Assembly: GCA_036505255.1 (NCBI GenBank)
Contig: DASXTT010000113.1
Span: forward strand, 1-39,031
Direction: 5' to 3'
Length of the DNA: 39,031 bases
Origin: Planctomycetota bacterium
GTDB lineage: Bacteria; Planctomycetota; MHYJ01; JACPRB01
How positions within the stretch are numbered: position 1 is the stretch's first letter; every line of letters starts with the position of its first letter. Below, in pieces: positions 3,227-39,031 of this stretch. A model generated the notes under the pieces. That model did not search any database. It saw only the letters and a list, made by a program, of their open reading frames with translations, and was not told the DNA's origin. The translations under genes and the position numbers were made by a program.

Positions 3227-3326
3227 GTCGGTCTAGTGGTTCGACCACGACAAATGGGTCAATTGAATCCGCGACCGGCGCATGAAGAGCTCCCTTTCAA
3301 CGGACAGAATCAATGTCGGCTCGCCA

Positions 3327-8025: not shown

Positions 8026-8078
8026 GGGCGGCTATGGTAGGGTTAACGGCCCTCCCATCTCCATCGAAAACCGTTAAG

Positions 8079-13083: not shown

Positions 13084-13135
13084 TCTCCTTATATCATCGC
13101 CGGCCGAAGCCATGATCGCGGAATCGGACGTCACG

Positions 13136-18328: not shown

Positions 18329-18393
18329 GGCGGCTCCTTGCTGGACCCGCATACTAGGACGGGCCGGGGGTGCCGTCAAACTTCACAATTCCG

Positions 18394-19908: not shown

Positions 19909-19965
19909 GGGGAAATCCTCCGCCGGGATTCTAGGCTGGGCGCGGAGGTTTTGTCAAAGCGGCCT

Positions 19966-20940
19966 TTATTTGTTTCCGCCCCCGCCGCCTCCCCCTTCCT
20001 TGCCTTCCTCCTTGGGCGGGGCTTCGGTCTCGGGGACGAGCCGGGTGCGGACGGTCTGGGTGCACGAGGAGTGTCCCTTTTCGGCGGCGTGGGGGCAGGC
20101 GGTCTTGTGTCCGGCCGGTCCGTCGAAGCGCTCCCACGTGACACGGCAGCGGTACGTGACGGTCGCATTGGCCTGCAGGTCCGCCCTGTTGAGTTTCCAC
20201 CATTTTTCCCAGTCGGCGGTGGTTTCCTCGTCGCCGCCCGTGATGGATTTCAGCGCGCGGTCGCAGGCGGCGCGCAACTTGGCTCCGCCCATTTCCCCGC
20301 CGCCGCCGCCGCCGAAGCGCCGCCCGCCGCCGCCGCCGAAGCCGCCGTTCTTGCGGCGCCAGTCGAGGAGGGGATCGACCGCGCCGGAGCTTCCGATGCG
20401 GCCGATGGCGTTGAAGGCCTCTTCGAGGACTTTCTTCCAGTCATCGTCGCTGGAGCGGTCAAGGAGCCTGACCAGGGGTGGCGAGGCCGATTCGTATCCC
20501 AGCTTCCCGAGGGCGCTGAAGATCGCCGCGAGGGCGACGGGGCGCTTCTCGTTGGGCGAGACGGCGGCGAGGAGGGAGTCGGCGGAAAGCGGGTGGTCCA
20601 GTTCCGCGATCTGGAGCGCCGCGTTGGCCGCGACGTCGGGGTTCGAGGCCCGGAGGTAGGAGACCATCGCCCGGATGACCTTCTCGTGGCGGACGCGGGA
20701 GATCTCCTTGAGGGCCGCGATCTGCGAGGACGGGAGGTCGGAAGCCATCGCCTTCTTGAACACGGCGAGAGCGGCTTCGGCCTCCTCGTCGGTGGCGGGG
20801 GCCGATTTCGCCGCCCCGGCGCCGGCCTTGGGATCCTGCTTGGGAGGTTCCTGCTTGGGAGGTTCCTGGAGCGCGGGGGCGCCGGCGGCCGCGAGAGACA
20901 GGACCGCGGGCAGAATGAGAGCGAGGAGGTAGCGCGACAT
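19966..20940 (-). CDS. Secreted HEAT-repeat protein with a Gly-rich linker and a Cys/His-containing C-terminal module
   Basis: Signal peptide MSRYLLALILPAVLSLAAAGA. Tandem QEPPK repeats. HEAT-like helices (AIFSALGKLGYESASPPLVRLLD, EEAFNAIGRIGSSGAVDPLLD). AAGGAG lies 9 nt upstream of the ATG. Confidence 0.7.
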   Translation of the reverse strand: MSRYLLALILPAVLSLAAAGAPALQEPPKQEPPKQDPKAGAGAAKSAPATDEEAEAALAVFKKAMASDLPSSQIAALKEISRVRHEKVIRAMVSYLRASNPDVAANAALQIAELDHPLSADSLLAAVSPNEKRPVALAAIFSALGKLGYESASPPLVRLLDRSSDDDWKKVLEEAFNAIGRIGSSGAVDPLLDWRRKNGGFGGGGGRRFGGGGGGEMGGAKLRAACDRALKSITGGDEETTADWEKWWKLNRADLQANATVTYRCRVTWERFDGPAGHKTACPHAAEKGHSSCTQTVRTRLVPETEAPPKEEGKEGGGGGGGNK

Positions 20941-21149
20941 GGGCAGCGTCTCCTTCGGCGAAGTCCGACCGTTGATCCCCGCTCCAACCCTGTTAACCCA
21001 TTATGACAGTTCGGGTGGCGGGAATGTTCGAAAATATGGACGGAGGAATCGCTGCGGCTCGATCGCGATCCAGCCGATTCTGAGGTAGGATGTCCGTCAT
21101 GACGGGCCCCGGGCGCGCCGTTCGAATAGCGCGCTGATCCTCCGCTCAG

Positions 21150-23601: not shown

Positions 23602-25479
23602 ATGCGCGCCGCACGCGTCTTCGCCCTCCTGCTCCTCGTCGGGCGCCCCGCCTCCGCGCAGGAGGTTCTCGAGGAGGATTGGAGCGTCATGACGATCATG
23701 GGGTCGCGCGTCGGCCACACCCACTCGCTGCGGACGCGCCGCGCCGGGCCGGACGGCGCCGCGGAGATCGAGACGCTCGAACAATCGCGCCTGGCCGTGA
23801 AGCGGATGGGCGCCGGGATCGAGATCAGCCAGGATGTCCGCCACGTCGAGACGCCGGACGGCCGCCCGCTCCGGTTCAGTTCCCGCATGATCATGTCCTC
23901 GACCCCCACGCTCACCGAGGGCGTCATCGAGAACGGCCGGCTCAAGCTGAAGACGACCTCCGGGGAGGTCACCAAGGAAACCGAGGTCGACTGGGACCCC
24001 GAGTGCCTCCTTTCCGAGGGGTCGCGCCTGCTCATGATCAAGAAGGGCTTCGCCCCGGGGACGAAGTACCGCTTCAAGACGTTCAGCGCCGACTTCGGCA
24101 AAGTCGACGAGGTGGAGGTCGAGGTGCTGGAGCCCGAAACCAAGACCGTTCTCGGCAAGGAACGGCGCCTGAACCGGGTTCAGGTGAAGACCTCCCTTCA
24201 GAAAGGCGTGGTCATGACGACCTGGCTCGACGAGAACGGCTCCGCCTGGGCCATGGAGTCCCCTCTCATGGGGTTGAAGCTGGCCGTCGAGCGCGCCACG
24301 CGGGAGGAGGCGCTGAAGTCGGCGCCGGCGGAGCTCCCGGAGATTTTCTTCAAGACGATGCCGCGGTCCGACGCCGCCCTGCCCCGGCCGCGTGAAATCA
24401 CCGAGCTCCGCGCGCGCCTTGAACGGCCGGATGGCGGGCTCGCGGACTGGAAGCCGCCCGGGGGGACGCAGACCGTCGTCGCGCGCGACACGAAGTCGGT
24501 GACGTTGCGGATCGTGGCGCCGCCGCCGGGAACGCCGGCGGCCCAGCCGGTCGAGGACCATTCGGCCTTCCTCAAGTCCTCGCCCGCCGTCCAGTCGGAC
24601 GATCCGGAAATCGTCGAGCAGGCGCGCCGGATCGTCGGCGAAGAGAAGGACCCGTACCGGAGGGCGAGCGCCCTCGCGGGCTGGGTCAACAAGCACATCA
24701 ACAAGAAGAGCATGGACGTCGCGGCCGCGAGCGCGAAGGAGGTCCTGAAGGATCGGACCGGCGACTGTTCCGAGCACGCCGTCCTCCTGACGGCGCTCCT
24801 GCGGGCCGCCGGGATCCCCGCCAAGGTGTGTTCCGGCTACCTGTACGTGCGCGGGTCCTGGGGCGGCCACGCGTGGAGCAGCGCCTGGGTGGGACGCTGG
24901 GTCGACCTCGACGCGACCCTCGGCGACGGCGTCGCCGACGCCGCCCGCATCAAGTTCAGCGAGACGACGCTCGAGGACGTGGGAGCGACGATCGAAGGCA
25001 TGACGGGCGCCGGTTTCATGCACGGCGACATGAAGATCGAACTCCAGGAGTACGCCCTCGACGGAAAAACGCACAAGGTGGAGCCGCCGGCGAAACCGAC
25101 CGACGACACCTTCTCCGCGCCGCTGCTCGGCGTTTCCTTCGAGAAGCCCGCGGACTGGAAGTTCACGGCGCCCAAGGACCTTCCGCCCTTCATCCTCGCG
25201 GTCCTCGCGTCGCCCGACGGGAAGGCCGAGGTCCGGATCAGCTACATCGACCTTCCGTACGACCTGGCCCCGCTCGAAACCAGGAAGGCGGCGCGCAAGC
25301 TCGGCGGGGGTTCCAGCGGCGAGGCCGGCCGCCTCGCGGGCCTCGACACCTACGAGACCGATTCCAGGCTCTTCGTCCGGCTGAGTCCCGGTGAAATGCT
25401 GGTGATCGTCCTCAAGGACGAGGAGGCCGCGCGCCCGGCCCTCGAGCACATCAAGAAGACCCTGAAGATCAAACGATGA
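23602..25479 (+). CDS. Secreted transglutaminase-like (Cys-His-Asp) domain protein
   Basis: Signal peptide MRAARVFALLLLVGRPASAQE. GGAGG lies upstream of ATG 23602. Core: TGDCSEHAVLLTALLRAAGIPAKV..GHAWSSAWV..WVDLDAT. The stop overlaps the next start (ATGA). Confidence 0.8.
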   Translation: MRAARVFALLLLVGRPASAQEVLEEDWSVMTIMGSRVGHTHSLRTRRAGPDGAAEIETLEQSRLAVKRMGAGIEISQDVRHVETPDGRPLRFSSRMIMSSTPTLTEGVIENGRLKLKTTSGEVTKETEVDWDPECLLSEGSRLLMIKKGFAPGTKYRFKTFSADFGKVDEVEVEVLEPETKTVLGKERRLNRVQVKTSLQKGVVMTTWLDENGSAWAMESPLMGLKLAVERATREEALKSAPAELPEIFFKTMPRSDAALPRPREITELRARLERPDGGLADWKPPGGTQTVVARDTKSVTLRIVAPPPGTPAAQPVEDHSAFLKSSPAVQSDDPEIVEQARRIVGEEKDPYRRASALAGWVNKHINKKSMDVAAASAKEVLKDRTGDCSEHAVLLTALLRAAGIPAKVCSGYLYVRGSWGGHAWSSAWVGRWVDLDATLGDGVADAARIKFSETTLEDVGATIEGMTGAGFMHGDMKIELQEYALDGKTHKVEPPAKPTDDTFSAPLLGVSFEKPADWKFTAPKDLPPFILAVLASPDGKAEVRISYIDLPYDLAPLETRKAARKLGGGSSGEAGRLAGLDTYETDSRLFVRLSPGEMLVIVLKDEEAARPALEHIKKTLKIKR

Positions 25480-27008
25480 CGCGCCTGGTCGCCGTCGAGG
25501 GGCCCCTGCGGGGGCGGACCTTCGAGATCGACGACGGTTCCACCGTCGGCCGCGCCGCTTCGTGCGCCGTGCGGATCGACGGCCGCCACATCTCCCGGAT
25601 CCACGCGCGCTTCGTCCGGAGATCCGCCGGCTTCGCCATCCAGGACGCGGGCAGCCGCAACGGCATCTTCGTCAACGGCCAGCGCGTGGACGACAAGGAG
25701 CTGACGCGGGACGACGAGATCGAGATCGGCGAGCACCTCCTGGTGTTCGAACCGACGGCGGAGCGCGACTCCGCTTCGCGCTCCCGCCCCGGGGGCGCCA
25801 CCCTCGTGACGGAGACGCTCGACGATCCGTTCGGGGAACCTCTTGAACCGGCTCGGACGGCGGCGACCCTCGACGCGGTTCGCGCTTTCCACGGGGCCGA
25901 GCCGGAAGAGAGGGCGGTCCGGCTCCTCCTCGACCGGCTCGTGAACGATCTTAGGGCCCGCCGGGGATTCGTGATGCTCGCGGACGACCGGGGCCGGCTG
26001 CAGCCGGCGGCGCGCCGGGCCCCGCCGGGGGACGACGAGATCCATCTCTCCAACGTCCTCTTCCACAAGGTGTGGAAGGAGCGGAAGTCGGTCCTCGCCT
26101 CGGACACCGCGCGCGGGGGCCCCTCGGCGGGGCGGGCCGTGGAAATCCTGGCGACCCCTCTGGCCGCGGCCGGCGACATCCTGGGCTTTATCTACCTCGA
26201 CGCCCCGCCCCCGGCTTTCGGCCGGTCGGACCTGAGGTACGCGGCCTGGCTGGCCGCCTTCGGCGCGGGGGCCATCGCCACGGCGCGGCGGATGCGCCGG
26301 GCGCGCGAGGCGGTGGCCGCCTCCGCGGGCCGGCTCGCCGAGGGAGGCGAGCTGGTGACCTCCGGGGCGCTTGATGAAGCGGTCCGGCGGATCGAGCGCG
26401 CGGCGGCCGGCGACGCGCCGGTGCTTTTCACGGGTGAGGCGGGGACCGGGAAGGAGCGCGCGGCCCGGCGCCTTCACGCCCTGGGCCCGCGCGCCGTGGG
26501 TCCCTTCGTCTCCGTCCGGTGCGGAGCGGTATCCGCTTCCCTCGTCGAGGCTGCCCTGTTCGGGGCGGGAGGCCGCGTGGCGGAGGCGCGCGCCGGGACG
26601 CTGTTCGTGGACGGGATCGACGTCCTGCCGCCGCCCGTTCGGGAGCGGCTCCTCGTCCTGGTGGACGAGCCCTCGGTCGAGGAGGACGTGCGGGTCGTGG
26701 CCGGGTCGCCCAACGCGGCGGGGCTCCAGGGCCATTTCGGGGAGATCATCGACCTGCCCCCGCTGCGCGAGCGGCTCGGCGACCTGCCGGCGCTCCTGCA
26801 CCATTTCCTGAGGACCCTCGGAGGACGGAGCGTGGGTTCGCTCGAGGACCACGTCGACCCCGCCGTCCTGCGCCGGTTGGAATCTCAATCCTGGCCCGGC
26901 AACGTCCGGGAGCTGCGGCTCGCCGTGGAGCGGATGCTCGCGGCGGCGGGAAGCGGACGCATCGACCCCTCGCATCTTCCCCATGAGCCGGAAGGCTCCG
27001 CGTCCTGA
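25476..27008 (+). CDS. FHA / GAF-like / degenerate sigma54-activator-type AAA+ protein (no HTH)
   Basis: FHA: GRAASCAVRI..HISRIHARF..GSRNGIFVNG. AAA+: LFTGEAGTGKE (Walker A), TLFVDGID (Walker B with Gly in place of Glu), LFGAGGRVAEA where GAFTGA is expected, LRERLGDLPAL, WPGNVREL. It ends without a DNA-binding domain. Confidence 0.85.
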   Translation: MTRLVAVEGPLRGRTFEIDDGSTVGRAASCAVRIDGRHISRIHARFVRRSAGFAIQDAGSRNGIFVNGQRVDDKELTRDDEIEIGEHLLVFEPTAERDSASRSRPGGATLVTETLDDPFGEPLEPARTAATLDAVRAFHGAEPEERAVRLLLDRLVNDLRARRGFVMLADDRGRLQPAARRAPPGDDEIHLSNVLFHKVWKERKSVLASDTARGGPSAGRAVEILATPLAAAGDILGFIYLDAPPPAFGRSDLRYAAWLAAFGAGAIATARRMRRAREAVAASAGRLAEGGELVTSGALDEAVRRIERAAAGDAPVLFTGEAGTGKERAARRLHALGPRAVGPFVSVRCGAVSASLVEAALFGAGGRVAEARAGTLFVDGIDVLPPPVRERLLVLVDEPSVEEDVRVVAGSPNAAGLQGHFGEIIDLPPLRERLGDLPALLHHFLRTLGGRSVGSLEDHVDPAVLRRLESQSWPGNVRELRLAVERMLAAAGSGRIDPSHLPHEPEGSAS

Positions 27009-27065: not shown

Positions 27066-29126
27066 ATGCGACCCTTGGATCGGTCCGGGGTCCTCTCTAT
27101 GACTTTCCCACCACCACCACCGCCGCCGGGTCCGGTGACGCAGGCCACCGGCTTGTCCGCGCCTCCGAGGGCGGACCTGGGCGGGATCCTCCTGCGCATG
27201 GGTGCCGTCACCCCGGCGCAGCTCGACGAGTGCCTGAAGCTGCAGCAGTCGATGGCCGGCCAGCCCCACGTCCCGCGGATCGGCGAGCTCCTCCTGCACA
27301 AGGGCTACGCCACCAAGGAGTCGATCCAGAAGGCCCTCGCGGAGCAGAACAAGAAGGTCCTCCTCTGCCCGCGCTGCAACATCATGGTGACGGTCAACCT
27401 GAGGTCGGACGCCATCGGGTACAAGTGCGGCAAGTGCGAGACGATCCTCATCGAGCCCTCGCCCGATCGGGAGGACGACAGCATCGACTCGATGATCATC
27501 GTCCACAGCAGCCTTCCGGTACCGCCCGAGGTGCAGGAGGCCCGCAAGGACCCGACGAAGCGTTTCGGCAAGTACATCCTGCTGGGCGAGATCGGCCGGG
27601 GCGGCATCGGCACCATTTACCGCGCGTGGGACGTCTACCTGAACCAGTTCGTGGCCCTCAAGCGGATCAAGCCGCCGCCCATGGGGGCGGGACGCGGCGT
27701 CCGCCACACGCGCATCGCGAGCCTCCTCAACGAGGCTCACAACGCGATCCGGCTGCGCCACCCGAACATCGTGTCCGTCTACGACATCGGCCGCATCGAG
27801 GACGAGTACTACATCAGCATGGAGTTCCTCGACGGGCGGACGATGCTCGACGAGGTGCAGGAGTGCAAGAAGGCGGGCAAGGTTTCGCCCTTCCACGAGA
27901 ACTCGCGGAAGTGGCTCGGCGTGCTCTACGAGACGGCCCAGGCGCTTCACTACGCCCACACGCGCCCGGCTCCATTGCTCCACTGCGACCTCAAGCCCGC
28001 CAACATCATGGTGACCAAGGACGGGCGGACCTGCATCCTCGACTTCGGCCTGGCGCGCCAGCTCGGCGAGATCAAGGCGGAGCAGGGGGTCGTCAGCGGC
28101 ACGCCTTCGTACATGGCCCCGGAACAGGCGGCCGGGCGCAATGACCTCCTCGACCCCCGCACCGACGTGTACGGCCTGGGCGCGATCCTGTACGAACTGC
28201 TCGCGGGCCAGCCTCCCTACATCGGGGAGGTGATGGACGTGCTGAAGCGGGTGCAGGAGGAGAGGCCGAAGCCGCCGAGCGAACTGGCGTGGGGCCGGGA
28301 CCCGGCGAGCGGTTCCTCGCGGCGGATGCTCCTCGTTCCGCCGGAGCTGGAGGCGCTCTGCATGCGGAGCCTCTCCAAGGAAGCGGCCAAGCGTCCGGCG
28401 AGCGCGCTGGTCTTCGCCGAGGAAATCGCGCACACGATCGGGGGCGGCAAGCGGTCGCTCCCCAAGCAGGCGGCGAGCTCCACGCTTCACACGGAATTGC
28501 AGTCAATCGCCGAATCCTTCGGCGCCCGCAAGGGCCGGCTGGTCCCGATCCTGCTCATGGCGTTCATGATGATCCTGGCGGCCTCGGCCACGGTGATCTT
28601 CTACTCGAAGTTCCGCGGCACCTACGAATCCGACGCCCCCGAACAGACCGCCCTGAAGTACCTCGCGGAGTTCCGCCCGGAGGAGGTCGACAAGCTGGGT
28701 CCCGATGTCCTGCGGCGTCCGGAGCTCAGCGAGGTCGTGCGGCGCCGGGACCAGATGGCGTCATTCAAGCAGCAACTTATGGACTACATCGAGGCGAAGA
28801 ATCCCTTCATCTGGCGTCTGACGATCGGATCCCAGTCGGCGAGAAACGTCACGCTGCAGCGGGCCCGGGCGGACAGCGTCACCTTCGTCATCGGCCAGCA
28901 GCTGCCGGACAACGCTCCGTGGTCGCGCTTCGGTCCGACCGGCGTGCACGAGATGGCGAAGGAGTGGAAGCTCCTCAATTCCGCCGGGAACAAGTACGCC
29001 ATGGCCCTCTACGCCCTGTCGGCCAACACCAAGGGGCTGGCCCGCGACCTGTTCAACAGCCTCCAGGGAACCCAGTTCGCCGGGCAGGCGGCCGAGTACC
29101 TCCGGCAGCTCGACCTGGAGAAATGA
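27066..29126 (+). CDS. Hanks-type Ser/Thr protein kinase with an N-terminal T2SSE_N/MshEN-like module and zinc ribbon, one TM helix and a C-terminal extracytoplasmic domain
   Basis: DLGGILLRMGAVTPAQLDECLKLQ and RIGELLLHKGYATKESIQKALAEQ. CPRC..CGKC. Kinase motifs GEIGRGGIGTIY, VALKRIK, HCDLKPANIMV, DFGLAR, GTPSYMAPEQ. TM helix LVPILLMAFMMILAASATVIFY. The alternative start is ATG 27099. Confidence 0.88.
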   Translation: MRPLDRSGVLSMTFPPPPPPPGPVTQATGLSAPPRADLGGILLRMGAVTPAQLDECLKLQQSMAGQPHVPRIGELLLHKGYATKESIQKALAEQNKKVLLCPRCNIMVTVNLRSDAIGYKCGKCETILIEPSPDREDDSIDSMIIVHSSLPVPPEVQEARKDPTKRFGKYILLGEIGRGGIGTIYRAWDVYLNQFVALKRIKPPPMGAGRGVRHTRIASLLNEAHNAIRLRHPNIVSVYDIGRIEDEYYISMEFLDGRTMLDEVQECKKAGKVSPFHENSRKWLGVLYETAQALHYAHTRPAPLLHCDLKPANIMVTKDGRTCILDFGLARQLGEIKAEQGVVSGTPSYMAPEQAAGRNDLLDPRTDVYGLGAILYELLAGQPPYIGEVMDVLKRVQEERPKPPSELAWGRDPASGSSRRMLLVPPELEALCMRSLSKEAAKRPASALVFAEEIAHTIGGGKRSLPKQAASSTLHTELQSIAESFGARKGRLVPILLMAFMMILAASATVIFYSKFRGTYESDAPEQTALKYLAEFRPEEVDKLGPDVLRRPELSEVVRRRDQMASFKQQLMDYIEAKNPFIWRLTIGSQSARNVTLQRARADSVTFVIGQQLPDNAPWSRFGPTGVHEMAKEWKLLNSAGNKYAMALYALSANTKGLARDLFNSLQGTQFAGQAAEYLRQLDLEK

Positions 29127-29186: not shown

Positions 29187-32100
29187 ATGGGCGATCCCTC
29201 CCTCCAGGACGCGGCGACCGGGCTGGGCAATCGGCGCGGCCTGCTCTCCGCCCTCCGCGACCGCATGCCGGCCCAGACGGGCGCCCTGATCCTGATCGAT
29301 CTCGACGGCTTTCGAGCCTCCGTCGAAGGCCTTGACCGCAAACAGATCGACGCCCTGCTCATGGACATCGCCGGGCGGCTCCGCGAGGGGGCCGGGGCGG
29401 AGGCCCTCCTTTTCCGGTACGGCGGCGACGCCTTCGGTCTGCTGGTTCCGGAGGCGGATCGCGACAAGGGCGCCGCGGCGGCCGAGAATCTCCGCTCCTC
29501 CGTCGACCGCAAGCCCTTCATGTCCGGAACGCGCTACATCCCGATGACGGCCAGCGCGGCGGTCGCGACCTACCCCATGGATGGAAAGTCCCCGGCGGGA
29601 GTGATCGAGGCGGCCGAGAGGGCCCTGCTGGTCGCCAAGCAGCTGGGGCGGAACCGCATCGCGGTGGCGGGCCGGCTCGACCCCGCCGCGCTCGCCGAGA
29701 TCGGCATCTTCCGCGGGCTCCCCTGCCCGATTCACATCGGGCGCGTCGCGGAGCAATCCCGCCTGCGCCAGCTCGCCACGGACGTCCGCAACGTCGGGCC
29801 GGCCGTCGCGGTCGTCACGGGCGGAGCCGGCGTCGGCAAGTCGCGCCTCCTCCAGGAGCTGGGGGTGTGGGCGCGGGCGGAGAAATACATCGTCCTCGCC
29901 GCGACCTGCCAGGAGTCGCGCGCGACGGCCCCCTATGCGACCCTCGCCGAGCAGATCGAAACGCACATGGCCTCGGACCGCGACAAGGTCCTGCAGGCCA
30001 TGCAGCGCATCAGCCCGGCCCACCGCGCGGCGCTCGCCGTGGTCCTCCGCGACCTGCCGGTGGAGTGGACGACCGAAGCGACCGAGGCGGGCGTGGTCGG
30101 GAAGTTGATCTTCGAGGCCTTCGGGGCCCTGTTCGAGGAGCTGTCCCGGATCGGCCCGCTGCTCGTCCTGGCCGACGAGGTGGAGTTCGGGGACGCCGCC
30201 ACCTTCGAGGTGTACCGCGCCGCGATCAGCCGGAAGCTTCCCATCCTCGTCGTCGTCGGCACCGATCGACCGGCCCCCGAGATGGAGCTGATGCCCTCGG
30301 GGTCCTTCTGGCGGGACTTCGGACCCGGGGCGTCGCGGATCAACCTCCAGGCGCTCCCGGCCGAGGACCTGCGGCAGATGGTCCGCGGCATCCTGCCGGA
30401 CGCCGAGATCAGCAGCGAGTCCCTGGCGCGGCTCGTCGTGGCCGCCCAGGGGAATCCGCTCTACATCGAGGAAACGATCCGGTCGCTCCTCCTGCGGGGA
30501 CGCCTCAAGCTGGCCGGGGGCCGGTGGTCGCTCGCCGAGCTGACGGCCGCCGACCTGTCGCGCGATCTCGCGGGCGCCATGCGCGCCGTCTCGGAGGCGC
30601 TGCCCTCCGGGGCCAATTCCCTCCTGACCCGCGCCGCGGTGATCGGCACGCGCGTCGACCCCGAGCTGCTGCAGGAGGTGCTCGGCGAGGGGGACATGGA
30701 GATGCTGGACCTCATCGACGAGGTCCGGCGGTCCCGGCTCCTTCTGCCCTCGGAGTCGGGCCAGGATCTCCTCTCCTTCCCGGCGGCCCACGCGCGTCGG
30801 GCCCGGCTGCAGACCTCGGACGCGACGGAGCGCCGCGAGATTCACGGCCGCGTCGGCGTGGTGCAGGAGGCGCGTCACGGCGGCGACGTCGACCACATCG
30901 CGGACGAGATCGCGTTCCACTACGGCCGCGCGGGGCAGGAGGCCAAGGCCAAGCAGTTCGACCAGATCGCGCAGAAGCGCGCGGCGCTCATCCAGCCGCC
31001 CCAGAAGCCCGGCGTCCGCCGGCCCACGCTTCCCCAGATCACGACGGCCCTGGCGGCCCCGGCGACCGAGCAGGCCCTGGCCCTCATGCGCCACTTCATG
31101 GCGGCCGTGAAGATCGGGAGGCTCTACCCGCAGTGGAGCCAGGTCGGGACCACGTTCCTCGCCCAGCTGCGGGGTTCGCTGGAGGCGCTCCTCACGGGAG
31201 GGCCCGGCCTCACCTTCGCCGTGACCACGAACGGCCCCGCCATCAACGGGGTCGTGACCGACGCCCCGGTGGCCGCCGACTTCGCCCGGCTCATCGAGGA
31301 GCGCCTCATCGAATCGATCACCATCCTGAACACCTTCGAATTCCCGCGGATCGAGACGCTCGTCCGCACCTTCGCGGAGCCCTTCGACCGGTCGCGGGTG
31401 TCGCCCGATTACTGGGACCGCTTCCTAGCCCGCGAGGCGATGGGGGCGATCGACATCGTCCAGAAGGCCTACCAGGCCCGAGAAACCGTGCGGCGGACGC
31501 GCGTCCAGCACGGGGACACGGCCGTGCCGCCCGAGGACATCGGCGCCGTGCGCGACGCGCTCCGCTTCGTGAAGGCCGCGGTGGACAACCTGAAGCGCTA
31601 CCCGCCGGGCCATTCGCTGGTGGAGGAGACGACCGGCCAGAGCGTCCGCACTTTCCTCGAGCTCCTTCGCAAGGTGCCGGCCGTGACCATCGGGACCGCG
31701 GAAGGGGAGCTCGTCCTCAACGGACAGCCCGCGGACCGGAAGTTCTTCTCCGAGGCGGGGGCCTTCTTCACCAAGGAGATCGACCAGCGCAAGATCCAGA
31801 GCATCTCGGTGTGGCGCGGCCTGATGGAGGACGAAGTCCGCGCCCTCATCAGCTACTTTTCGCTGACGGCCGAGGAGGCCCTTCAGCCGGGGACGGGCGA
31901 GCGCCTGCTCACCCAGTTCACCCACGTCGCGTTCGGCTCCCGCGCCTACGAGCGGGCGACGGAGGAGGCCGGGGCGCCGCTCCACCCGCCGCCGAAGGCG
32001 GTGCGATCGGAACTCCGGGCCCGGGAGCACCTCTCCAAATCGGACGAGGAGTTCCTCACCCCCGACCTCGAGCGCCAGTTCCCCCTCCTCGTCGAGGCGC

Positions 32101-33248
32101 TGGCCTACGGGGCGGGGCGGACCCTGGCGGAGCAGCTCGTGGACCGGCTCGGGACCCACTTCCACCACCCGAGCCTCTCCCACCGCACGCGGGCCTTCAA
32201 CCTGCTGACGCGGTCGATCGCCTTCGCCTCCCCCGGAACGCGCAAGCTGGCCGTGATGCGGTCCGCCGCGTCGCTCAAGATGCGCCTGTCGGAGGATACG
32301 GAGCCGCTGCACGTGCGGGCCGCGGTGAACCTCCTGCCCGTCTGGATCCCGGCCGCCGCCGCGTCGGGCTGCCTCGGCGAGCTGGCGGAGATCGCGGGTC
32401 GGACCCTGCGGAGGCGGGCCGACTCCCCGGCGACGCCGCCGGAGGTGGCGGCCGTCTGCGAATCGGCCCTCCAGCTCATCCCGCAGTCGCAGGCCTACGA
32501 CGCGATCTGCGCCGCGGTCCGGAAGCCCGCCGAGGACGATCGCAACGCGGCCATCACGATCCTGCTTTCGGTCGGCGGCCCGACCGTGGAGAAGCTCGTC
32601 GAGATCCTGGCCGAGGAGTCGGACCTGCAGGTCCGGCGCGCGATCTCGCTCTCGCTCGCGCCGGCCTCGGAGCGGCTCTCGCCCGAGATCATCCGGCTTC
32701 TCCCGCCCGACGGCGAGCCGCAGCGGCTCGCCCGCGTGCTCATGGTGATCGAGCCGCTTCTGACGGGGACGGTGGCGGCCCACATCGCCACGCTGGCCGA
32801 GAAGTCGGGCCCGGACATCCGGGGAGTCATCCTCAAATCCGCCGAGCAGTGGCCCCGATCGGTGGCTTCGGGAGTCGTCCGCCGGCTCCTGGCCAGCCCG
32901 GCCCGGGATCTCCGCGACGCGGGGATCGAGGCGGCCACGCGGATGAAACTCGAGGCGGTCAAGGCGGAGATCGGCCGCATCCTCGAGGGGGCGCAGGACG
33001 AGCGGCTCATGGTCCTTTGCGCGGGATTCTTCCGGGAGGTGCCCAATCCCGCCGTCGTCGCGCTGCTGACGAAGATCGCCCAGACCCGTCCCAAGCTCTT
33101 CGGCCTCGTGAAAGGCTACGCGGCCGAGACCCGCGCGGCCGCCGTCCTGGCCCTGGCCGCCCAGGGGACCCGCCAGGCGGAGGAGGCCGTGACCGCGGCG
33201 GTGACCGATCCGAAGGTCAAGGCCCTCACGGAATCGAGGAAGAAGTAG
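29187..33248 (+). CDS. Degenerate GGDEF domain / STAND-type (AAA_16-like) NTPase / internally duplicated module / HEAT-repeat protein (1353 aa)
   Basis: GGDEF-like N-terminus with RYGGDAF (nt 29421-29435). Walker A GGAGVGKS (29820-29843). Walker B LLVLADEVEF. A helical region follows. Two related ~100-aa modules lie at about 31080-31385 and 31545-31865. HEAT-like C-terminus. Confidence 0.85.
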   Translation: MGDPSLQDAATGLGNRRGLLSALRDRMPAQTGALILIDLDGFRASVEGLDRKQIDALLMDIAGRLREGAGAEALLFRYGGDAFGLLVPEADRDKGAAAAENLRSSVDRKPFMSGTRYIPMTASAAVATYPMDGKSPAGVIEAAERALLVAKQLGRNRIAVAGRLDPAALAEIGIFRGLPCPIHIGRVAEQSRLRQLATDVRNVGPAVAVVTGGAGVGKSRLLQELGVWARAEKYIVLAATCQESRATAPYATLAEQIETHMASDRDKVLQAMQRISPAHRAALAVVLRDLPVEWTTEATEAGVVGKLIFEAFGALFEELSRIGPLLVLADEVEFGDAATFEVYRAAISRKLPILVVVGTDRPAPEMELMPSGSFWRDFGPGASRINLQALPAEDLRQMVRGILPDAEISSESLARLVVAAQGNPLYIEETIRSLLLRGRLKLAGGRWSLAELTAADLSRDLAGAMRAVSEALPSGANSLLTRAAVIGTRVDPELLQEVLGEGDMEMLDLIDEVRRSRLLLPSESGQDLLSFPAAHARRARLQTSDATERREIHGRVGVVQEARHGGDVDHIADEIAFHYGRAGQEAKAKQFDQIAQKRAALIQPPQKPGVRRPTLPQITTALAAPATEQALALMRHFMAAVKIGRLYPQWSQVGTTFLAQLRGSLEALLTGGPGLTFAVTTNGPAINGVVTDAPVAADFARLIEERLIESITILNTFEFPRIETLVRTFAEPFDRSRVSPDYWDRFLAREAMGAIDIVQKAYQARETVRRTRVQHGDTAVPPEDIGAVRDALRFVKAAVDNLKRYPPGHSLVEETTGQSVRTFLELLRKVPAVTIGTAEGELVLNGQPADRKFFSEAGAFFTKEIDQRKIQSISVWRGLMEDEVRALISYFSLTAEEALQPGTGERLLTQFTHVAFGSRAYERATEEAGAPLHPPPKAVRSELRAREHLSKSDEEFLTPDLERQFPLLVEALAYGAGRTLAEQLVDRLGTHFHHPSLSHRTRAFNLLTRSIAFASPGTRKLAVMRSAASLKMRLSEDTEPLHVRAAVNLLPVWIPAAAASGCLGELAEIAGRTLRRRADSPATPPEVAAVCESALQLIPQSQAYDAICAAVRKPAEDDRNAAITILLSVGGPTVEKLVEILAEESDLQVRRAISLSLAPASERLSPEIIRLLPPDGEPQRLARVLMVIEPLLTGTVAAHIATLAEKSGPDIRGVILKSAEQWPRSVASGVVRRLLASPARDLRDAGIEAATRMKLEAVKAEIGRILEGAQDERLMVLCAGFFREVPNPAVVALLTKIAQTRPKLFGLVKGYAAETRAAAVLALAAQGTRQAEEAVTAAVTDPKVKALTESRKK

Positions 33249-33394: not shown

Positions 33395-36352
33395 TCAGGG
33401 CTTGCCGTTCACGCGCTCCCGCGCCGACCGGATGGCGGGCTCGAGGCGGCTCCCGTATGAGGAGTCGATGCTGACGGCTTTCTCGAAATCGCGAAGGGCA
33501 TCGGCGTACCGGGCGAGCCGCAGCAGGATCTGTCCGCGATGCTCATAGACGGCGGCCGCTTCCGAGGCCAGCTGGACCGCCGCCTCCGCGGCCTCGAGGG
33601 CCTCGGTCCCCCGGTCCAGCGCTTCCAGCGCCCGGGCCCGCAGGAGGAGCGGCCACGCATCCCGGGGCTCCAGCTCGGAGGCCCGCTTGAAGAGCGGGAG
33701 CGCCTCTTCGGGCTCGCCCTTCCGGAGGCGCGCGAGACCTCCTCCGGCGGCCGCCAGGGCCGAGGAGGGCTCCAGGCCCGCCGCCGCGGCGAACGCCTCG
33801 CCGGCGCCGGCGAACCCGCCGCGCTCGATGAGAATCCGGCCCTTCACGAGCAGGGGGGCCGAGCGGTCGGGCGCGAGAGTCCGCGCCTCCTCCAGATCCG
33901 TGTCCGCCCCGGCCGCGTCGCCCCGCCTATGGCGGACCCACGCCCGGGCCAGTTTCGGTCCGGGATCGGCGGGCGCGTAGCGAATGGCGACGCCGAGGTC
34001 GGCGTCGGCCCCCGCCAGATCCTCGGCACCCAGGCGCGCCCAGCCGCGCAGCCGCCACGCGTCGGTGTCGGCGGGGAATTTCTCCAGGTACCGGTCGAGG
34101 ACGGCCGCGGCCTCCGCCGGTTTCCCGTCGAGCCATCGCAGGGCCGCCTGGGCGAAATCGTCCCGCGCCGGGTCGCGGGCGACCAGGGACCAGACGCTCG
34201 TGAGATCGACGTGCGCGCGTTCCCGTTCCTCGGCATGCGCCGGTGACGACGGAATCCCGTCAGGCCTGAAGTCGACGAGGAGGCCTTCCATGACCCGGGC
34301 CAGCCGGACTCTCGCCCGATCGCAGAGGGCCGCCGTGAGATCCGGGGCCCGGGCCAGCGCGGCGGTGAGGTCCTCCTCCGCCGCCGGTCCCGCTCCGCGG
34401 AGCATGCGCGCCCGCGCCCTCAGGTGCAGCGCTTCTTCGTGGTTGGGCACAATCTTCAGCGCCTCGTCGAGGATTTTCTCGACGGCCGCGACCCGCTCGA
34501 GGATTCCCGCACCGTCGAGCCCCACCTGCCTCGGGATCATCTCGAGCATCGTCCGCGCCGACCCAACCTGGGGGGCCACCTGGCGCCGCTTCTCGTCCAG
34601 GGCGAGCTCGCGGATGAATTCATCCCTCTGCGAAGCGATGCGCTGCACGACCCACTGGTGGAACTGGGTCATTCCGGGGTCTTCGGGGCGAAGCCGGAGG
34701 GCGGCTTGCGCGTGGAGCAGCGCCTCCTGATATTTCCGCTCGTCGAAGCTGCGCTGGGCCTCCCCCCTGAGCCGCGAGAATTCCCGCGAGTCCCGCGACA
34801 TGAGATACAGGACCAGGCTCCCGGACACCGCGAAGAGGGCCAGGGAGACCGCGGCGAGGGCGGTCGACTTGTTCTTGCGGATTCGCCGGAAGGCCCGGAT
34901 GGGCCACGGCTGGGGCCGCGCCAGGATCGGCTCGCCGTCGAGGTAGCGGCGCAGGTCGTCCGCGAACTCTCCCGCGGTCGCGTACCGGAGCGCGGGGTCC
35001 TTGTCGATCGCCTTCAGGCAGATCGTCTGAAGGTCGGGATGGACGCGCTCGTTGAAGACGCGCGGGGGCGGGGGCTCCTCGGTCAGGATCTTGTGGAAGA
35101 TTTCCACGCTGTTCTGGGCGACGTGAGGCGTGCGCCCGCAGAGGATCTCGTAGAGGATCACGCCGAGCGAATAGAGGTCGCTGCGCGGGCCGACGAGCCG
35201 CGTCTCCCCGCGGATCTGCTCCGGCGCCATGTAGTAGGGGGTCCCGAGGAAGCTCCCGTCGCGCGTCAGCATGGCGCGCTTGGGGTCGTCGAGGAACTTG
35301 GCGAGGCCGAAGTCCATGACGTGCGGCTCGCCGTTGAGGTCGATCATGATGTTCGCCGGCTTCAGGTCCCTGTGGACGATGCCCTGCTCGTGCGCGTGGT
35401 GGACGGCGCGGACCACCTTCTCGAGGCGCGCGATCATGTCGCGCACCTTGAATCCTCGGGCGAGGTGGGTCGTGAGGGGGTCGCCCTCGATGTAGTCCAT
35501 CGCGAGGTAGTGCATCCCCGCTTCCTGGCCCGCGTCGTGGATCGCCACGATGTTCGGGTGGCGGAGGCGCGCCTCGGCCTGCGCCTCGCGCTTGAAACGG
35601 TCGAGCACTTCGGCGGAGGCCATCTCGGTCTCGCGCAGGATTTTCAGGGCGAAGACCGTGTTCAGGTCCCGGTGGGCCGCCTTGTAGACGATGCCCATCC
35701 CGCCGCGGCCCAGTTCCTCGAGGATGGCGTACCGGCCGAACTGCGTTCCCACCTCCGCGGCGCGTTTCGCCGTCGCGGCCCCCATCGGGCCGGCCGGAGC
35801 CCCCTCGGGCTCCACCTGCGGGATCGGCACCACCGTCCCGCACCGCCGGCACGCGAACTTGGCCCCGCGATCTTTCTCGTCGAATCGGTAGAAGGTGTCG
35901 CAACCGGGACAGCGCACGATGGAGCGCCGCTGGACTTTGAGGATCTCGAGGAACTGTCCCGTCTGGAGCCAGCCCTTCCGGAGCAGGATCTGTCCGAGCA
36001 TCGCCGGGGAGCCGGAGCGCGAGAGGAGCGCCTGCTCCTCGAGCGCCTGGTTCACGTTTTCGGCCGCGACGAAGCCGAGGTCGAGCGCGATCTGCCCGAA
36101 GAGCCCGCCCCGGGCCGGGTCGGCGGCCACGATCCGGACCTGGCGGGTCTGGATGTCGAGGATCGCGGCGAGCCGCTTCGGGGTGATGTATCCCTTGTCG
36201 ATGAGGATCTCGCCCAGCTTGCGCGGCGCGGTCGCCTGTTTCTGGAGCGAGACGCACTCCTCGACCTGCTGGGCCGAAACGAAGCCCTCGCGGACGGCCA
36301 GGGAGCCGAGGAGCCGGTCGTCGCCTCCGCGCGTGGCAGCGGGATCAGACAC
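33395..36352 (-). CDS. Hanks-type Ser/Thr kinase with two N-terminal MshEN-like modules, zinc ribbon, TM helix and a long TPR region
   Basis: Start set at GTG 36352, with GGAGG 6 nt upstream. Four 24-aa repeats ending in Q. CPGC..CRRC. Kinase motifs LGRGGMGIVY, FALKIL, HRDLKPANIMI, DFGLAK, GTPYYMAPEQ. TM helix ALAAVSLALFAVSGSLVLYL. TPR-like repeats run to the C-terminus. Confidence 0.88.
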   Translation of the reverse strand: MSDPAATRGGDDRLLGSLAVREGFVSAQQVEECVSLQKQATAPRKLGEILIDKGYITPKRLAAILDIQTRQVRIVAADPARGGLFGQIALDLGFVAAENVNQALEEQALLSRSGSPAMLGQILLRKGWLQTGQFLEILKVQRRSIVRCPGCDTFYRFDEKDRGAKFACRRCGTVVPIPQVEPEGAPAGPMGAATAKRAAEVGTQFGRYAILEELGRGGMGIVYKAAHRDLNTVFALKILRETEMASAEVLDRFKREAQAEARLRHPNIVAIHDAGQEAGMHYLAMDYIEGDPLTTHLARGFKVRDMIARLEKVVRAVHHAHEQGIVHRDLKPANIMIDLNGEPHVMDFGLAKFLDDPKRAMLTRDGSFLGTPYYMAPEQIRGETRLVGPRSDLYSLGVILYEILCGRTPHVAQNSVEIFHKILTEEPPPPRVFNERVHPDLQTICLKAIDKDPALRYATAGEFADDLRRYLDGEPILARPQPWPIRAFRRIRKNKSTALAAVSLALFAVSGSLVLYLMSRDSREFSRLRGEAQRSFDERKYQEALLHAQAALRLRPEDPGMTQFHQWVVQRIASQRDEFIRELALDEKRRQVAPQVGSARTMLEMIPRQVGLDGAGILERVAAVEKILDEALKIVPNHEEALHLRARARMLRGAGPAAEEDLTAALARAPDLTAALCDRARVRLARVMEGLLVDFRPDGIPSSPAHAEERERAHVDLTSVWSLVARDPARDDFAQAALRWLDGKPAEAAAVLDRYLEKFPADTDAWRLRGWARLGAEDLAGADADLGVAIRYAPADPGPKLARAWVRHRRGDAAGADTDLEEARTLAPDRSAPLLVKGRILIERGGFAGAGEAFAAAAGLEPSSALAAAGGGLARLRKGEPEEALPLFKRASELEPRDAWPLLLRARALEALDRGTEALEAAEAAVQLASEAAAVYEHRGQILLRLARYADALRDFEKAVSIDSSYGSRLEPAIRSARERVNGKP

Positions 36353-36488
36353 GGCGAACCTCCGATGTCGATGGCGGGCGGGGATCGGCAGGCGGGCCGT
36401 TCCCCCCTGCGGCCAAAGTATACCTGATGGGCCCGCGGCCGGGTGGCGCGCTCCCCTTTTCGCCCCTCGTGGGGTATAACGGAGGCCC

Positions 36489-39031
36489 ATGGCGGACGCC
36501 CCCGAAAAGGATCTCGCCAAAGACGGACTGCTCGCGATCGCGCCGCGCGACCCGACCGGCCGCCCCACCCTCGGCGGAATCCCTCTCTACAAGAAACTCG
36601 GCCAGGGGGGGATGGGCGCGGTCTACCTGGGAAAACACCCGCGGCTCGGCGTCGAGGTCGCCGTCAAGATCCTCCCTTTTCACCTCGCCGACCAGGACCC
36701 CAACGCCATCGAGTATTTCATGCGGGAGGCGAACGTCGCCGCGCGGCTGAACCACCCGAGCCTGGTGCGCATCTTCGACGTCAACGTCGACGGCGATCCC
36801 AAGGCGGGCTCGGCGATCTGGTACCTGGTCATGGAGTTCGTCTCGGGCCTGACCGGGGGAAAGCTCATCCGCGAGCGCATGAAAGGCGGGAAGGGGCCCC
36901 TGTCGGAAGCGGACGCGCTCGATCTCCTGCTCACCGTGAGCGACGGCCTCGCCGCCGCCCACGAGGAGAATTTCGTCCACCGCGACATCAAGCCTGAGAA
37001 CATCATCATCCCCCTCTCCCCCGAGGGCGAGCCGCAGTTCCGGAAAGCGAAGCTCATGGACCTCGGCCTCGCCAAGCTCCTGTCCGAGGAACGGTCCATC
37101 GGGTTGACGGGGACAAACGTGGCCATGGGGACGCCGGGCTACATGGCGCCCGAACAGGCGGAAAACGCGAAGGGGGCGGGCCCGCCCTCGGACGTCTTCG
37201 CGATGGGCGCGACGCTCTACACGCTCCTGACGGGATCGGCGCCGTTCACGGGGACCACCGTCCTTCACGTCCTGAAGAAGACGAGCGAAGAGCCCCATCC
37301 GCCCCTGCGGAACGTCAACCCCGCCGTGAGCCGGCCGACGGAGGTCCTCGTCGACACCTGCCTCGCCAAGCGACCCGAGGCGCGGTACGCGAGCGCGGGC
37401 GTGCTTCGCGAGGCGCTGAAGGCGTGCCGCCAATCCCTCGGCGGCGAGATTTCCACCGACCGGACGCTCGCCTCGCTCCAGAATCTCGCCTCGGTCGCCT
37501 CCACCGACCCGACGGTCCGGGCGCCCTCCCCGTCGATCCTCCCTTCGGCCTCCCCCCGGACCGGCGTGACGGCGAAGACGCCCGAGCCCGAGGTGGCGGC
37601 CCCGTCCGTACCGGCGCCGGCTCCCGCGGCACCCTCCTCGCCGGGTCCGGCGCGGAGATCGAAGGCGCCGCTTCTCGTCGCCGCGGCGGCGGTCGCCCTC
37701 CTGGCCGCGGCCGGAATCGGAGCCTTCATCGTTTTCCGGCCCGGCGGGAGAGGATCCTCCGAGAAGACCGACCCCGGGAAAAAAGAAATCCCCCCCGACG
37801 CGGCCGGCGCCGAATTCGCCCAGGCCATGCGTGACGCGGAAGGCGCCCTCAACGATGAGGACTACGCGAAGGCGGAAGCGCTGTACAAGGAGGCGCGTCA
37901 CCTCAGGCCCCAGTCCTCGGAGGCCGAGGAGGGAGAGCGCCGGGCCCGCCAGCTCACGGAGCAGGCTTCGTCGGTCGCCACCGCCGTGGGCGACGCCGAA
38001 GCGCTCGCCGTGTCGAAGGATTACGCTTCCGCATGGCAGAAACTCCGGACGGCCATCGACCGCCACCCCGACGCGATCACCCTCCGAACCGCGTCGGCGA
38101 AGCTGGCCCTCGACCACGGGACGTACGCCTGGCTCGGCCTCGCCCTCAACGACGCCAACGTCGCCCTCCGGCTGGCGGGCCCGAAGCGCAAGCCCGCGGC
38201 GACCCAGCTGCGCGACAAGCTGGAGGCGAAGAAGAAATCGGCGGAAGCGGCGGGCGGAGTGCTTCCCCAGATCCAGCTCGCGATCGACCGCGGCGATTGG
38301 GACGCCGCGGAAAAGCTGCTCGACCAGGTCGAACCCGCGGAGCGAGGCGCATTCACGCGCGCGATCGAGCAGGGCCGGAAGTGGCAGGCGGCCATGGCGC
38401 GGGGAAAAAAGGCGGAGGAGTCGCGCCAGTGGCCCGAGGCGCTCGCGGCGTACCACGAGGCGCTCTTGTTGAAGTCCGACCCCGCGACGGACGAGGCCAT
38501 CCGGCGCGCCGAACAGGAAGTCAAGTCGCAGTACGGAGCGGAGTGCGACGGGGCCCTGCACGAGGCCAAGGGCGGTCGCTTCGACGAGGCGCGGCGCCAC
38601 CTGGCGGCCGCCGAACAGCTGACGCCCTCCGGCCTGCGCCACAACAAGCTCAAGGACGAGATCCAGTTCCTGGAGCACCTCGCGGAGGCGCGCAAGCTCC
38701 GCCGGGACGGGAAGAACGCCGACGCCCTCGCGGCCGCGCGGAGGGCGCTCGCGCTCCGCGGCGATTCGCCCGAGGCCCGGACGCTCGTCGAGGAGCTTGG
38801 ACGCGAAGGCCCGCTCGCCGGGGCGAAGGCGGCGCTGGCCGGCGGCGACCGCGCGACGGCCGCGCGGCTCGCGCGCGCCGCGGCCGCGGACAACCCCGCG
38901 GCCCCCGAGCTGAAAGACCTCGAGCGGGAGCTGTGGCCCGACCTGTTCGCTGAAAAGGCCAAGTCCCCGGCGGCCGGGCCCGTTGACGACCTGGCCGCCG
39001 CCTCCGACGGGCGAATCGTCGGCACGGGGGG
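36489..39031 (+). CDS. Third Hanks-type Ser/Thr kinase with TM helix and TPR-like region; 3'-truncated by the window end and absent from the supplied ORF track
   Basis: I translated this frame codon by codon and found no stop from ATG 36489 to nt 39031. Motifs: LGQGGMGAVYLG, VAVKIL, HRDIKPENIII, DLGLAK, GTPGYMAPEQ. TM helix LLVAAAAVALLAAAGIGAFIVF. Repeated helical Ala/Glu/Arg-rich pairs follow. GGAGG precedes the ATG. Confidence 0.85.
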   Translation, partial: MADAPEKDLAKDGLLAIAPRDPTGRPTLGGIPLYKKLGQGGMGAVYLGKHPRLGVEVAVKILPFHLADQDPNAIEYFMREANVAARLNHPSLVRIFDVNVDGDPKAGSAIWYLVMEFVSGLTGGKLIRERMKGGKGPLSEADALDLLLTVSDGLAAAHEENFVHRDIKPENIIIPLSPEGEPQFRKAKLMDLGLAKLLSEERSIGLTGTNVAMGTPGYMAPEQAENAKGAGPPSDVFAMGATLYTLLTGSAPFTGTTVLHVLKKTSEEPHPPLRNVNPAVSRPTEVLVDTCLAKRPEARYASAGVLREALKACRQSLGGEISTDRTLASLQNLASVASTDPTVRAPSPSILPSASPRTGVTAKTPEPEVAAPSVPAPAPAAPSSPGPARRSKAPLLVAAAAVALLAAAGIGAFIVFRPGGRGSSEKTDPGKKEIPPDAAGAEFAQAMRDAEGALNDEDYAKAEALYKEARHLRPQSSEAEEGERRARQLTEQASSVATAVGDAEALAVSKDYASAWQKLRTAIDRHPDAITLRTASAKLALDHGTYAWLGLALNDANVALRLAGPKRKPAATQLRDKLEAKKKSAEAAGGVLPQIQLAIDRGDWDAAEKLLDQVEPAERGAFTRAIEQGRKWQAAMARGKKAEESRQWPEALAAYHEALLLKSDPATDEAIRRAEQEVKSQYGAECDGALHEAKGGRFDEARRHLAAAEQLTPSGLRHNKLKDEIQFLEHLAEARKLRRDGKNADALAAARRALALRGDSPEARTLVEELGREGPLAGAKAALAGGDRATAARLARAAAADNPAAPELKDLERELWPDLFAEKAKSPAAGPVDDLAAASDGRIVGTG

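Follow-up and report, generated by a model that had tools for sequence, protein, structure and literature searches.

Among described systems, the closest relatives of the protein analyzed here are MshE of Vibrio cholerae (5HTL) and the GSPII-B and GSPII-C domains of PilF from Thermus thermophilus (8PDK), which bind cyclic di-GMP (c-di-GMP) and whose output is a secretion or pilus ATPase. Their 24-residue motifs have a Leu-Gly start, a Gly turn and an LxxxLxxQ end in common with those of that protein. Wang et al. (2016) name the Ser/Thr protein kinase among the fusion partners of MshEN, and the concept of an MshEN-kinase fusion is thus already published (PMC5013675). The same study describes 'MshEN_N only' fusions (Suppl. 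Table 4), in which the minimal portable input module sometimes occurs as (MshEN_N)2, as well as Stigmatella PKN11 from the Myxococcales, with the order Pkinase-MshEN-UNK-REC, i.e. an N-terminal kinase followed by a full MshEN domain. Biochemical tests of the fusions catalogued there were not found in the literature searched. Here, we describe K1, a kinase with an N-terminal MshEN_N module encoded in a 39,031-nt stretch of DNA (hereafter the window) from a Planctomycetota bacterium (assembly GCA_036505255.1, contig DASXTT010000113.1, positions 1 to 39,031 of the forward strand).

K1 (27066..29126, + strand; 686 aa) is a single-pass membrane Hanks-type Ser/Thr kinase from an uncultured member of the Planctomycetota. 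Its layout is an MshEN_N module, a zinc ribbon, a non-RD Hanks kinase domain, a predicted transmembrane helix and an extracytoplasmic C-terminal domain. The AlphaFold2 (AF2) model of the full-length protein has a mean predicted local distance difference test score (pLDDT) of 85, and more than 100 full-length homologues of 36-94% identity were found in Planctomycetota metagenome-assembled genomes. The closest of these, P0001 (94% identical), begins at the position equivalent to Met12, and the true start of K1 may therefore be at 27099; residue numbers throughout refer to the 686-aa open reading frame from 27066 and not to Met12.

Similar to the 'MshEN_N only' fusions, K1 has the minimal input module, which matches MshE and the PilF GSPII domains best in sequence, profile and fold searches. 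Both terminal Gln residues are kept and an Arg opens motif 2. Unlike the ATPases, K1 lacks the C-terminal (T2SSE_N1) subdomain and has a zinc ribbon instead, its motif 1 opens with Asp after a Lys/Arg at −2 rather than with Arg, Lys or Leu, the spacer between the motifs is 10 residues instead of 5-7, its output is a Hanks kinase, and binding is plausible. In contrast to PKN11, the order in K1 is MshEN_N, zinc ribbon, kinase, transmembrane helix and outer domain, the host belongs to the Planctomycetota, and an invariant zinc ribbon is the putative coupling element.

The N-terminal module of K1

A preliminary description of the window, made from its letters alone, had placed two tandem 24-residue motifs at residues 37-60 and 71-94, with the leading Arg kept only in the second and 10 residues between them. 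The letters are exactly as noted. Motif 1, DLGGILLRMGAVTPAQLDECLKLQ, together with the basic R35 at −2, spans 27168..27245 (+), and motif 2, RIGELLLHKGYATKESIQKALAEQ, with the pattern R71-I-G-E ... I87xxxL91xxQ94, spans 27276..27347 (+). The first opens with Asp (D37) and the second with R71, and they are separated by residues 61-70 (QSMAGQPHVP; 27246..27275, +), the spacer. The segment originally singled out, 27174-27437, corresponds to residues 37-124 and hence includes the zinc ribbon cysteines discussed below.

The strict motif of Wang et al. (2016) is matched at 9 of 11 specified positions in motif 1 and at 7 of 11 in motif 2. In the relaxed version, which those authors used for database counts (PMC5013675), the fit of motif 2 is complete, and motif 1 misses at position 1 alone, where it has Asp. 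When any residue was allowed at position 1, the relaxed motif was found six times across the six reading frames of the window, always within two kinase genes, compared to 0.2 expected occurrences and a maximum of 2 in shuffled windows (n=300). For the K1 protein alone, two motifs were observed and 0.004 expected, and none of 5000 shuffles reached two, by which a chance origin of the motifs was rejected.

The homology extends beyond the motif letters. NF053729 ('c-di-GMP_motif, MshE-related'), a curated 53-residue NCBIfam model with a cutoff of 38 bits, gave 40.9 bits with whole K1 and 45.3-47.8 bits with N-terminal fragments, with motif 2 as the best-matching stretch, and it was matched at E<=1e-3 by all 35 sampled homologues. 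The N-terminus also gave weaker, secondary hidden Markov model (HMM) matches to NfrB, EpsG and the PRK15489 glycosyltransferase, in each case in the region that bears MshEN_N. In searches of PDB sequences, K1 as a single query found T. thermophilus PilF at 7e-9 (phmmer), and a profile of 35 family sequences found PilF (7e-16), Geobacter PilB (7e-11), PilF GSPII-B (2e-8) and MshE 5HTL (3e-6), in alignments to PilF, PilB and MshE that run motif to motif and in register.

Structure prediction gave the same picture. The AF2 model of residues 30-140 (pLDDT 79.5) is a four-helix bundle with helices at 38-45, 50-62, 72-79 and 84-93 followed by beta-hairpins, and in the full-length model the module region has pLDDT >90. 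In a Foldseek search of this fragment against 350,542 PDB chains, the two best matches were chains B and A of 5HTL, MshE with c-di-GMP bound (probability 1.00); chain A superimposes at 1.7 Å over 58 columns with 29% identity. The small size of the domain (~55 residues) keeps the E-values modest (0.06-0.14). The next fold match was Xanthomonas citri PilB-N.

The assignment meets one contrary result. The preliminary description had likened the module to T2SSE_N/MshEN and named the Pfam models as a check, and T2SSE_N (PF05157) does not match K1 at E<=1, nor is it among the 25 most-matched Pfam families listed for 35 relatives. The miss is due to the absence of the C-subdomain from K1, where the zinc ribbon occupies its place, and it is not counted against homology since the 53-residue NCBIfam model and the PDB profile and fold searches agree. 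Wang et al. have a category for such proteins, 'MshEN_N only, no T2SSE_N1 domain' (PMC5013675). The likeness to MshE noted at the outset is thus borne out, though not by the Pfam model: the N-terminus of K1 is a minimal cytoplasmic MshEN_N (GSPII N-subdomain) four-helix bundle of two 24-residue helix-turn-helix motifs.

Modules of this kind are widespread. A profile of the module and the ribbon matched 10,716 clusters (E<=1e-3), 1,844 of them at E<=1e-10, in a set of 1.84 billion representatives, and in many of these matches there are 2-10 repeats per protein. Ten top matches were compared with Pfam, of which four had Pkinase (one with FHA and one with TPR), one Amidase_2 with HEAT and one FGE-sulfatase; the module itself is not recognized by Pfam in the matches scanned. 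Given the many clusters and varied partners, the planctomycete lineage commonly uses the MshEN_N module as a portable domain for input or as an adaptor.

Conservation of the putative ligand-contact positions

Conservation was counted in an alignment of 106 K1 homologues (35-94% identity). G39, Q60, G73, E74, L91 and Q94 are invariant, G46, G80, L57 and L72 are conserved in at least 90%, and positions 53 and 87 (motif position 17) are Leu, Ile or Val across the family. The two motifs differ at position 4, which is Gln or Glu in motif 1 and an invariant Glu in motif 2. R71, at position 1 of motif 2, is Arg in 103 and Lys in 3 sequences. The spacer is 8-13 residues long, always with Pro as its last residue.

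Among the invariant and near-invariant positions are c-di-GMP contacts of MshE and PilF. The known non-binders have lost contact positions, G11V and Q61V among others in XpsE (PMC5013675) and H33 and R62 in PilF GSPII-A (PMC12002112). From the alignment, the presumed ligand-contact positions of the K1 family are conserved beyond folding needs. A Lys or Arg at −2 of motif 1 is found in 34/34 orthologues (>=43% identity) within the pattern [K/R]-x-D-[L/I]-G and is not kept in more distant paralogues; this residue, R35 in K1, might substitute for the missing Arg of motif 1.

Zinc ribbon, kinase domain and outer domain

The preliminary description had the module followed by a CxxC..CxxC zinc ribbon and a complete Hanks kinase domain, and both are present. 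The predicted metal-binding region, a four-Cys zinc ribbon of two beta-hairpins (residues 96-127; 27351..27446, +), contains CPRC (101-104) and CGKC (121-124) with 16 residues between them, and C101, C104, C121, C124 and R113 are invariant in the 106 homologues. In the AF2 model, its strands are 96-101, 106-111 and 116-121 (pLDDT >90). Zn_ribbon_SprT or Zn_ribbon_TFIIB HMMs match 21-22 of 35 relatives, with sub-threshold matches in K1 itself. The linker between ribbon and kinase (residues 130-170) has pLDDT 83-97 in the full-length model, without any low-confidence stretch. In the model, the ribbon and structured linker thus join the bundle to the kinase N-lobe without predicted disorder, which suggests a fixed arrangement of the ribbon relative to the kinase.

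The kinase domain (residues ~168-447; 27567..28406, +) is matched by Pfam Pkinase over residues 172-445 (E=7e-39) and has all catalytic residues: K199, E223, H306-C307-D308, K310, N313, D326-F-G and P352-E353. Of these, K199, D308, K310, N313, D326-F-G and P352-E353 are invariant in the family alignment. HCD replaces HRD at residues 306-308 (27981-27989) in all 72 aligned family members, and the K1 family is therefore non-RD. Judged by its residues, the catalytic domain is complete and catalysis is predicted. Non-RD kinases are usually independent of activation-loop phosphorylation, and the sequence of the family points to another kind of regulation.

The best fold match of the kinase domain is PknB of Mycobacterium tuberculosis (TM-score 0.85, 30% identity); the full-length fold search returned kinase domains only and was uninformative on the N- and C-terminal domains. 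Similar to PknB and other receptor Hanks kinases, K1 has a cytoplasmic kinase domain, a single transmembrane helix and an extracytoplasmic putative sensor domain. The predicted transmembrane helix (residues 492-513, LVPILLMAFMMILAASATVIFY; 28539..28604, +) was read by eye as a hydrophobic stretch and falls inside a long AF2 helix, 493-520. Past it lies a C-terminal domain of ~160 aa (28647..29123, +), predicted as helix/beta-sheet/helix with pLDDT 94-98, which is conserved in the family with an invariant W619 and has no Pfam match at E<=10. K1 differs from PknB in its additional N-terminal cytoplasmic module, its non-RD (HCD) catalytic motif and an outer domain that is not PASTA, and looks like a receptor kinase with an extra cytoplasmic input module.

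Does the module bind c-di-GMP?

Several properties of the characterized domains make binding by a module such as that of K1 conceivable. In PilF, the isolated N-subdomain retains full affinity (PMC12207366). Position 1 does not have to be Arg, as GSPII-B has Lys and Leu there and binds at 6 nM, and the extended consensus for this position is Arg, Lys or Leu, with Pro in GSPII-C (PMC11731258). Val at position 17 is likewise tolerated in GSPII-C. K1 has the terminal Gln of both motifs, the Leu-Gly element at positions 2-3 and the hydrophobic pair at 17/21. The terminal Gln residues of MshEN motifs hydrogen-bond phosphate and ribose. At position 1, R71 of motif 2 lies within the extended consensus and D37 of motif 1 outside it. 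The spacer of 10 residues is longer than that of MshE (5) or of PilF GSPII-C and Geobacter PilB (7) (PMC5013675; alignments). Taken together, c-di-GMP binding by K1 is plausible from its sequence, with about an even chance of being correct, and gating of the kinase by c-di-GMP, as suggested by the preliminary description, is something we infer.

Other observations weigh against binding. A motif match alone is insufficient for it. Position 1 of motif 1 is Asp in 71, Ser in 17 and Asn in 3 of the 106 homologues and never Arg, Lys, Leu or Pro; Asp, Ser and Asn are classic helix N-cap residues. In PilF GSPII-A, the pocket is closed off by helix 1, which an N-cap stabilizes, and the domain stayed non-binding even after its consensus had been fully restored (PMC12002112). 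A Ser in the corresponding place of motif II of GSPII-A has been flagged as damaging. The long spacer of K1 is located at the end of the bundle where ligand would bind, and X. citri PilB-N, one of the fold matches, uses the same fold to bind a protein, PilZ. The presence of the module in more than 10,000 clusters with many unrelated partners fits a generic adaptor equally well as a receptor.

The surroundings of K1 likewise speak against a local supply of ligand. The survey of genes in the 39-kb window revealed no active cyclase or phosphodiesterase. The adjacent gene (29187..33248, +), noted earlier as GGDEF-type, encodes a 1353-aa protein with a GGDEF domain, an AAA_16 STAND NTPase and HEAT repeats (Pfam). 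The GGDEF fold stands (Pfam E=6e-21; TIGR00254, 66 bits), but the domain is degenerate and not readable as a c-di-GMP source. The GG(D/E)EF signature and the substrate-binding Asn are active-site features of diguanylate cyclases. The signature is GGDAF in the window and AGDSF, AGDAF or GGDSF in orthologues, degenerate in every one inspected; the segment DLDGFRASVEGLD lacks the guanine-binding Asn of FKxxND; and an RxxD I-site, sought five residues before the signature, is absent, with GAEALLF preceding RYGGDAF. The domain is very unlikely, by these residues, to make c-di-GMP, and the neighbor was rejected as a local source on account of the degenerate signature and missing I-site.

The most serious alternative to a c-di-GMP receptor, which we consider possible though less probable than binding, is that the bundle, an MshEN_N homologue, binds no nucleotide, through loss or from the outset, and functions in protein-protein interaction or dimerization. 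The bundle and ribbon would then dock the kinase onto a partner, for instance the GGDEF-STAND protein, or bring about its dimerization. Such a role agrees with the family-wide Asp/Ser/Asn at position 1 of motif 1, the long spacer at the would-be site, the PilZ-binding surface of X. citri PilB-N and the fusion of the module to many unrelated domains. PilF GSPII-A and the N-domain of Xanthomonas campestris XpsE are moreover natural non-binders with the same fold and recognizable motifs (PMC12002112, PMC5013675), and GSPII-A resembles K1 in that one motif opens with a small polar residue (S39 in GSPII-A) and helix 1 begins with residues of the N-cap type. These two have, however, lost the terminal Gln and several Gly/Leu contacts, while the K1 family keeps all of them, with the surface Gln, Gly and Leu contacts invariant over 35-94% identity. 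The curated c-di-GMP-motif HMM is also passed, and the Lys/Arg conserved at −2 in orthologues could replace the missing Arg.

The systematic differences between the motifs at positions 1 (Asp/Ser/Asn versus Arg) and 4 (Gln/Glu versus invariant Glu), a half-site asymmetry absent from MshE, would also suit another nucleotide, such as 3'3'-cyclic GMP-AMP (cGAMP), cyclic di-AMP (c-di-AMP) or linear pGpG, with the two half-sites reading two different bases. We regard this as improbable: the remaining contact positions are all of the c-di-GMP type, no MshEN-type domain was reported to prefer another ligand in the literature searched (PMC5013675, PMC11731258), and the proposal is pure inference. Least credible by far is a chance or compositional likeness of an ordinary helical hairpin repeat unrelated to MshEN. 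At the module, Pfam gives just weak partial matches to DUF4388 and FumaraseC_C and none to T2SSE_N, and designer PPR repeats turn up in the PDB profile search without a significant stretch; this explanation is nevertheless already contradicted by the shuffles, by NF053729 in K1 and all 35 relatives, by the in-register profile matches to four solved MshEN/GSPII proteins (7e-16 to 3e-6) and by 5HTL as the best fold match among all PDB chains searched.

A model for K1

The combined data are compatible with a model, to which we assign an even chance, where c-di-GMP or a close cyclic dinucleotide bound by the bundle switches the kinase, with phospho-Thr as output. One ligand molecule would sit at that end of the bundle at which helices 1 and 3 start and helices 2 and 4 finish. 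Its phosphates and riboses would be contacted by Q60, Q94 and backbone amides, and stacking on its guanines would come from the Leu/Ile/Val clusters, R71 and possibly the Lys/Arg at −2 of motif 1. The ligand would order the N-terminal segment and the spacer, and this ordering would be relayed via the rigid zinc ribbon to the N-lobe or a dimer interface, thereby switching kinase activity. The extracytoplasmic C-terminal domain would provide a second, external input. The phospho-Thr produced would be read by the FHA domain of an AAA+ protein encoded upstream and would act jointly with the degenerate-GGDEF STAND NTPase encoded 3' of the kinase.

A much bolder extension, which we put forward as doubtful, is that the Planctomycetota possess a very large, undescribed class of Hanks kinases switched by c-di-GMP through a single or doubled MshEN_N module and an invariant zinc ribbon. 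The K1 orthologues would in that case have a half-site not seen before, with [K/R]-x-D-L-G and a long Pro-rich spacer, and would form, together with the degenerate-GGDEF STAND NTPase and the FHA-AAA+ protein, a conserved three-gene circuit from c-di-GMP to phospho-Thr to an FHA reader.

Genetic context of K1

The co-occurrence of the kinase with a GGDEF neighbor, raised in the preliminary description as a matter for survey, is seen in all six orthologous loci (the window, L001, L002, L005, L007 and L008), where the GGDEF-STAND gene lies directly 3' of the kinase at 45-94% identity (L001 11056-15120; L002 10989-15080; L005 10987-15090; L007 1932-6053; L008 9136-13254). The GGDEF-STAND protein matches the TOMM_kin_cyc model over its AAA_16 part and resembles a split kinase-cyclase-AAA_16 fusion.

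On the other side of K1 lies a gene for a sigma-54-activator-like FHA-GAF-AAA+ protein (25476..27008, +; Pfam FHA 1e-16, GAF_2 2e-9, Sigma54_activat 1e-20). Four loci were inspected on the upstream side; an FHA gene precedes the kinase in three of these, namely the window, L001 and L002, and is absent in L005. The phospho-Thr-binding residues of the FHA domain are intact by sequence (GR...SRxH...NG), and the protein is a candidate phospho-Thr reader of the kinase output. It has no GAFTGA loop and no helix-turn-helix (HTH), its Walker B motif reads DG instead of DE, and it is probably neither a sigma-54 activator nor a DNA-binding protein; HTH_8 is present in the orthologue from L002. The conserved trio of FHA protein, kinase and GGDEF-STAND protein suggests one pathway.

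The arrangement is not a trait of the whole family and was rejected as such, since the paralogues of <=41% identity (L003, L004 and L006) have other neighbors, without GGDEF-STAND and FHA genes. Some distant kinase paralogues lie in tandem arrays of two or three kinase genes (L003 9001-13059; L006 1567-6500), which indicates local duplication.

The second kinase, K2, and the remaining genes of the window

The window encodes a second module-bearing kinase, K2 (33395..36490, − strand), with four MshEN motifs, a CPGC..CRRC zinc ribbon (35911-35840, −), an RD Hanks kinase domain and TPR repeats. The motifs, found by motif search, form two pairs (36313-36242 and 36220-36149; 36103-36032 and 36001-35930; all −) and begin with Leu, Lys, Leu and Met, respectively, so that the Leu and Lys of the first pair are within the extended consensus. 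NF053729 gave 70.9 bits with the N-terminal region of K2 and 47.1 bits with the first pair alone. Binding of c-di-GMP is by sequence somewhat more likely for K2 than for K1, and K2 is the better receptor candidate. A third Hanks kinase gene (36480-39029, +) is divergent from K2 and runs past the window end; its visible part has no MshEN motif.

The rest of the window includes genes for polyphosphate metabolism, proteases, a sigma factor and a phosphatase. The polyphosphate cluster comprises PPK2 (2519-3232, −), PPK1 (7842-10226, +), a CHAD-domain protein (13031-13915, +) and a Ppx/GppA phosphatase with HD (13912-15489, +). A PP2C/SpoIIE-type Ser/Thr phosphatase (18394-19953, −) is flanked by a DUF1425 protein (17786-18382, −) and a HEAT-repeat protein (19966-21000, −); the block, which shows synteny with L001, may be part of one phospho-signalling neighborhood with the three kinases. 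A phage-integrase-family (tyrosine recombinase) gene (3-776, +) is cut by the window start.

Significance

Literature on MshEN in Planctomycetes and on c-di-GMP with Hanks kinases was searched with incomplete coverage; within it, the K1 family is not described, and no biochemically demonstrated direct control of a Hanks kinase by c-di-GMP was found. Beyond the catalogue of Wang et al. and the literature searched are the order MshEN_N-ribbon-kinase-transmembrane helix, the invariant ribbon as coupler, the [K/R]xDLG/long-spacer variant, the planctomycete expansion and the conserved pairing with a degenerate-GGDEF STAND protein. K1 is a well-founded and testable lead that is no surprise to specialists.

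Signalling by c-di-GMP and phosphorylation by Hanks-type Ser/Thr kinases both rank among the largest signalling systems of bacteria. The compact module of K1 (~100 residues) and the two better-matching modules of K2 make the question of a direct link between them directly testable. If K1 does not bind, its module would join PilF GSPII-A as a second case in nature of an MshEN site that looks like the consensus and is non-binding. If the proposed model is true, a large share of planctomycete signalling proteins would be re-annotated, and the sequence rules for MshEN-type sites would be extended.

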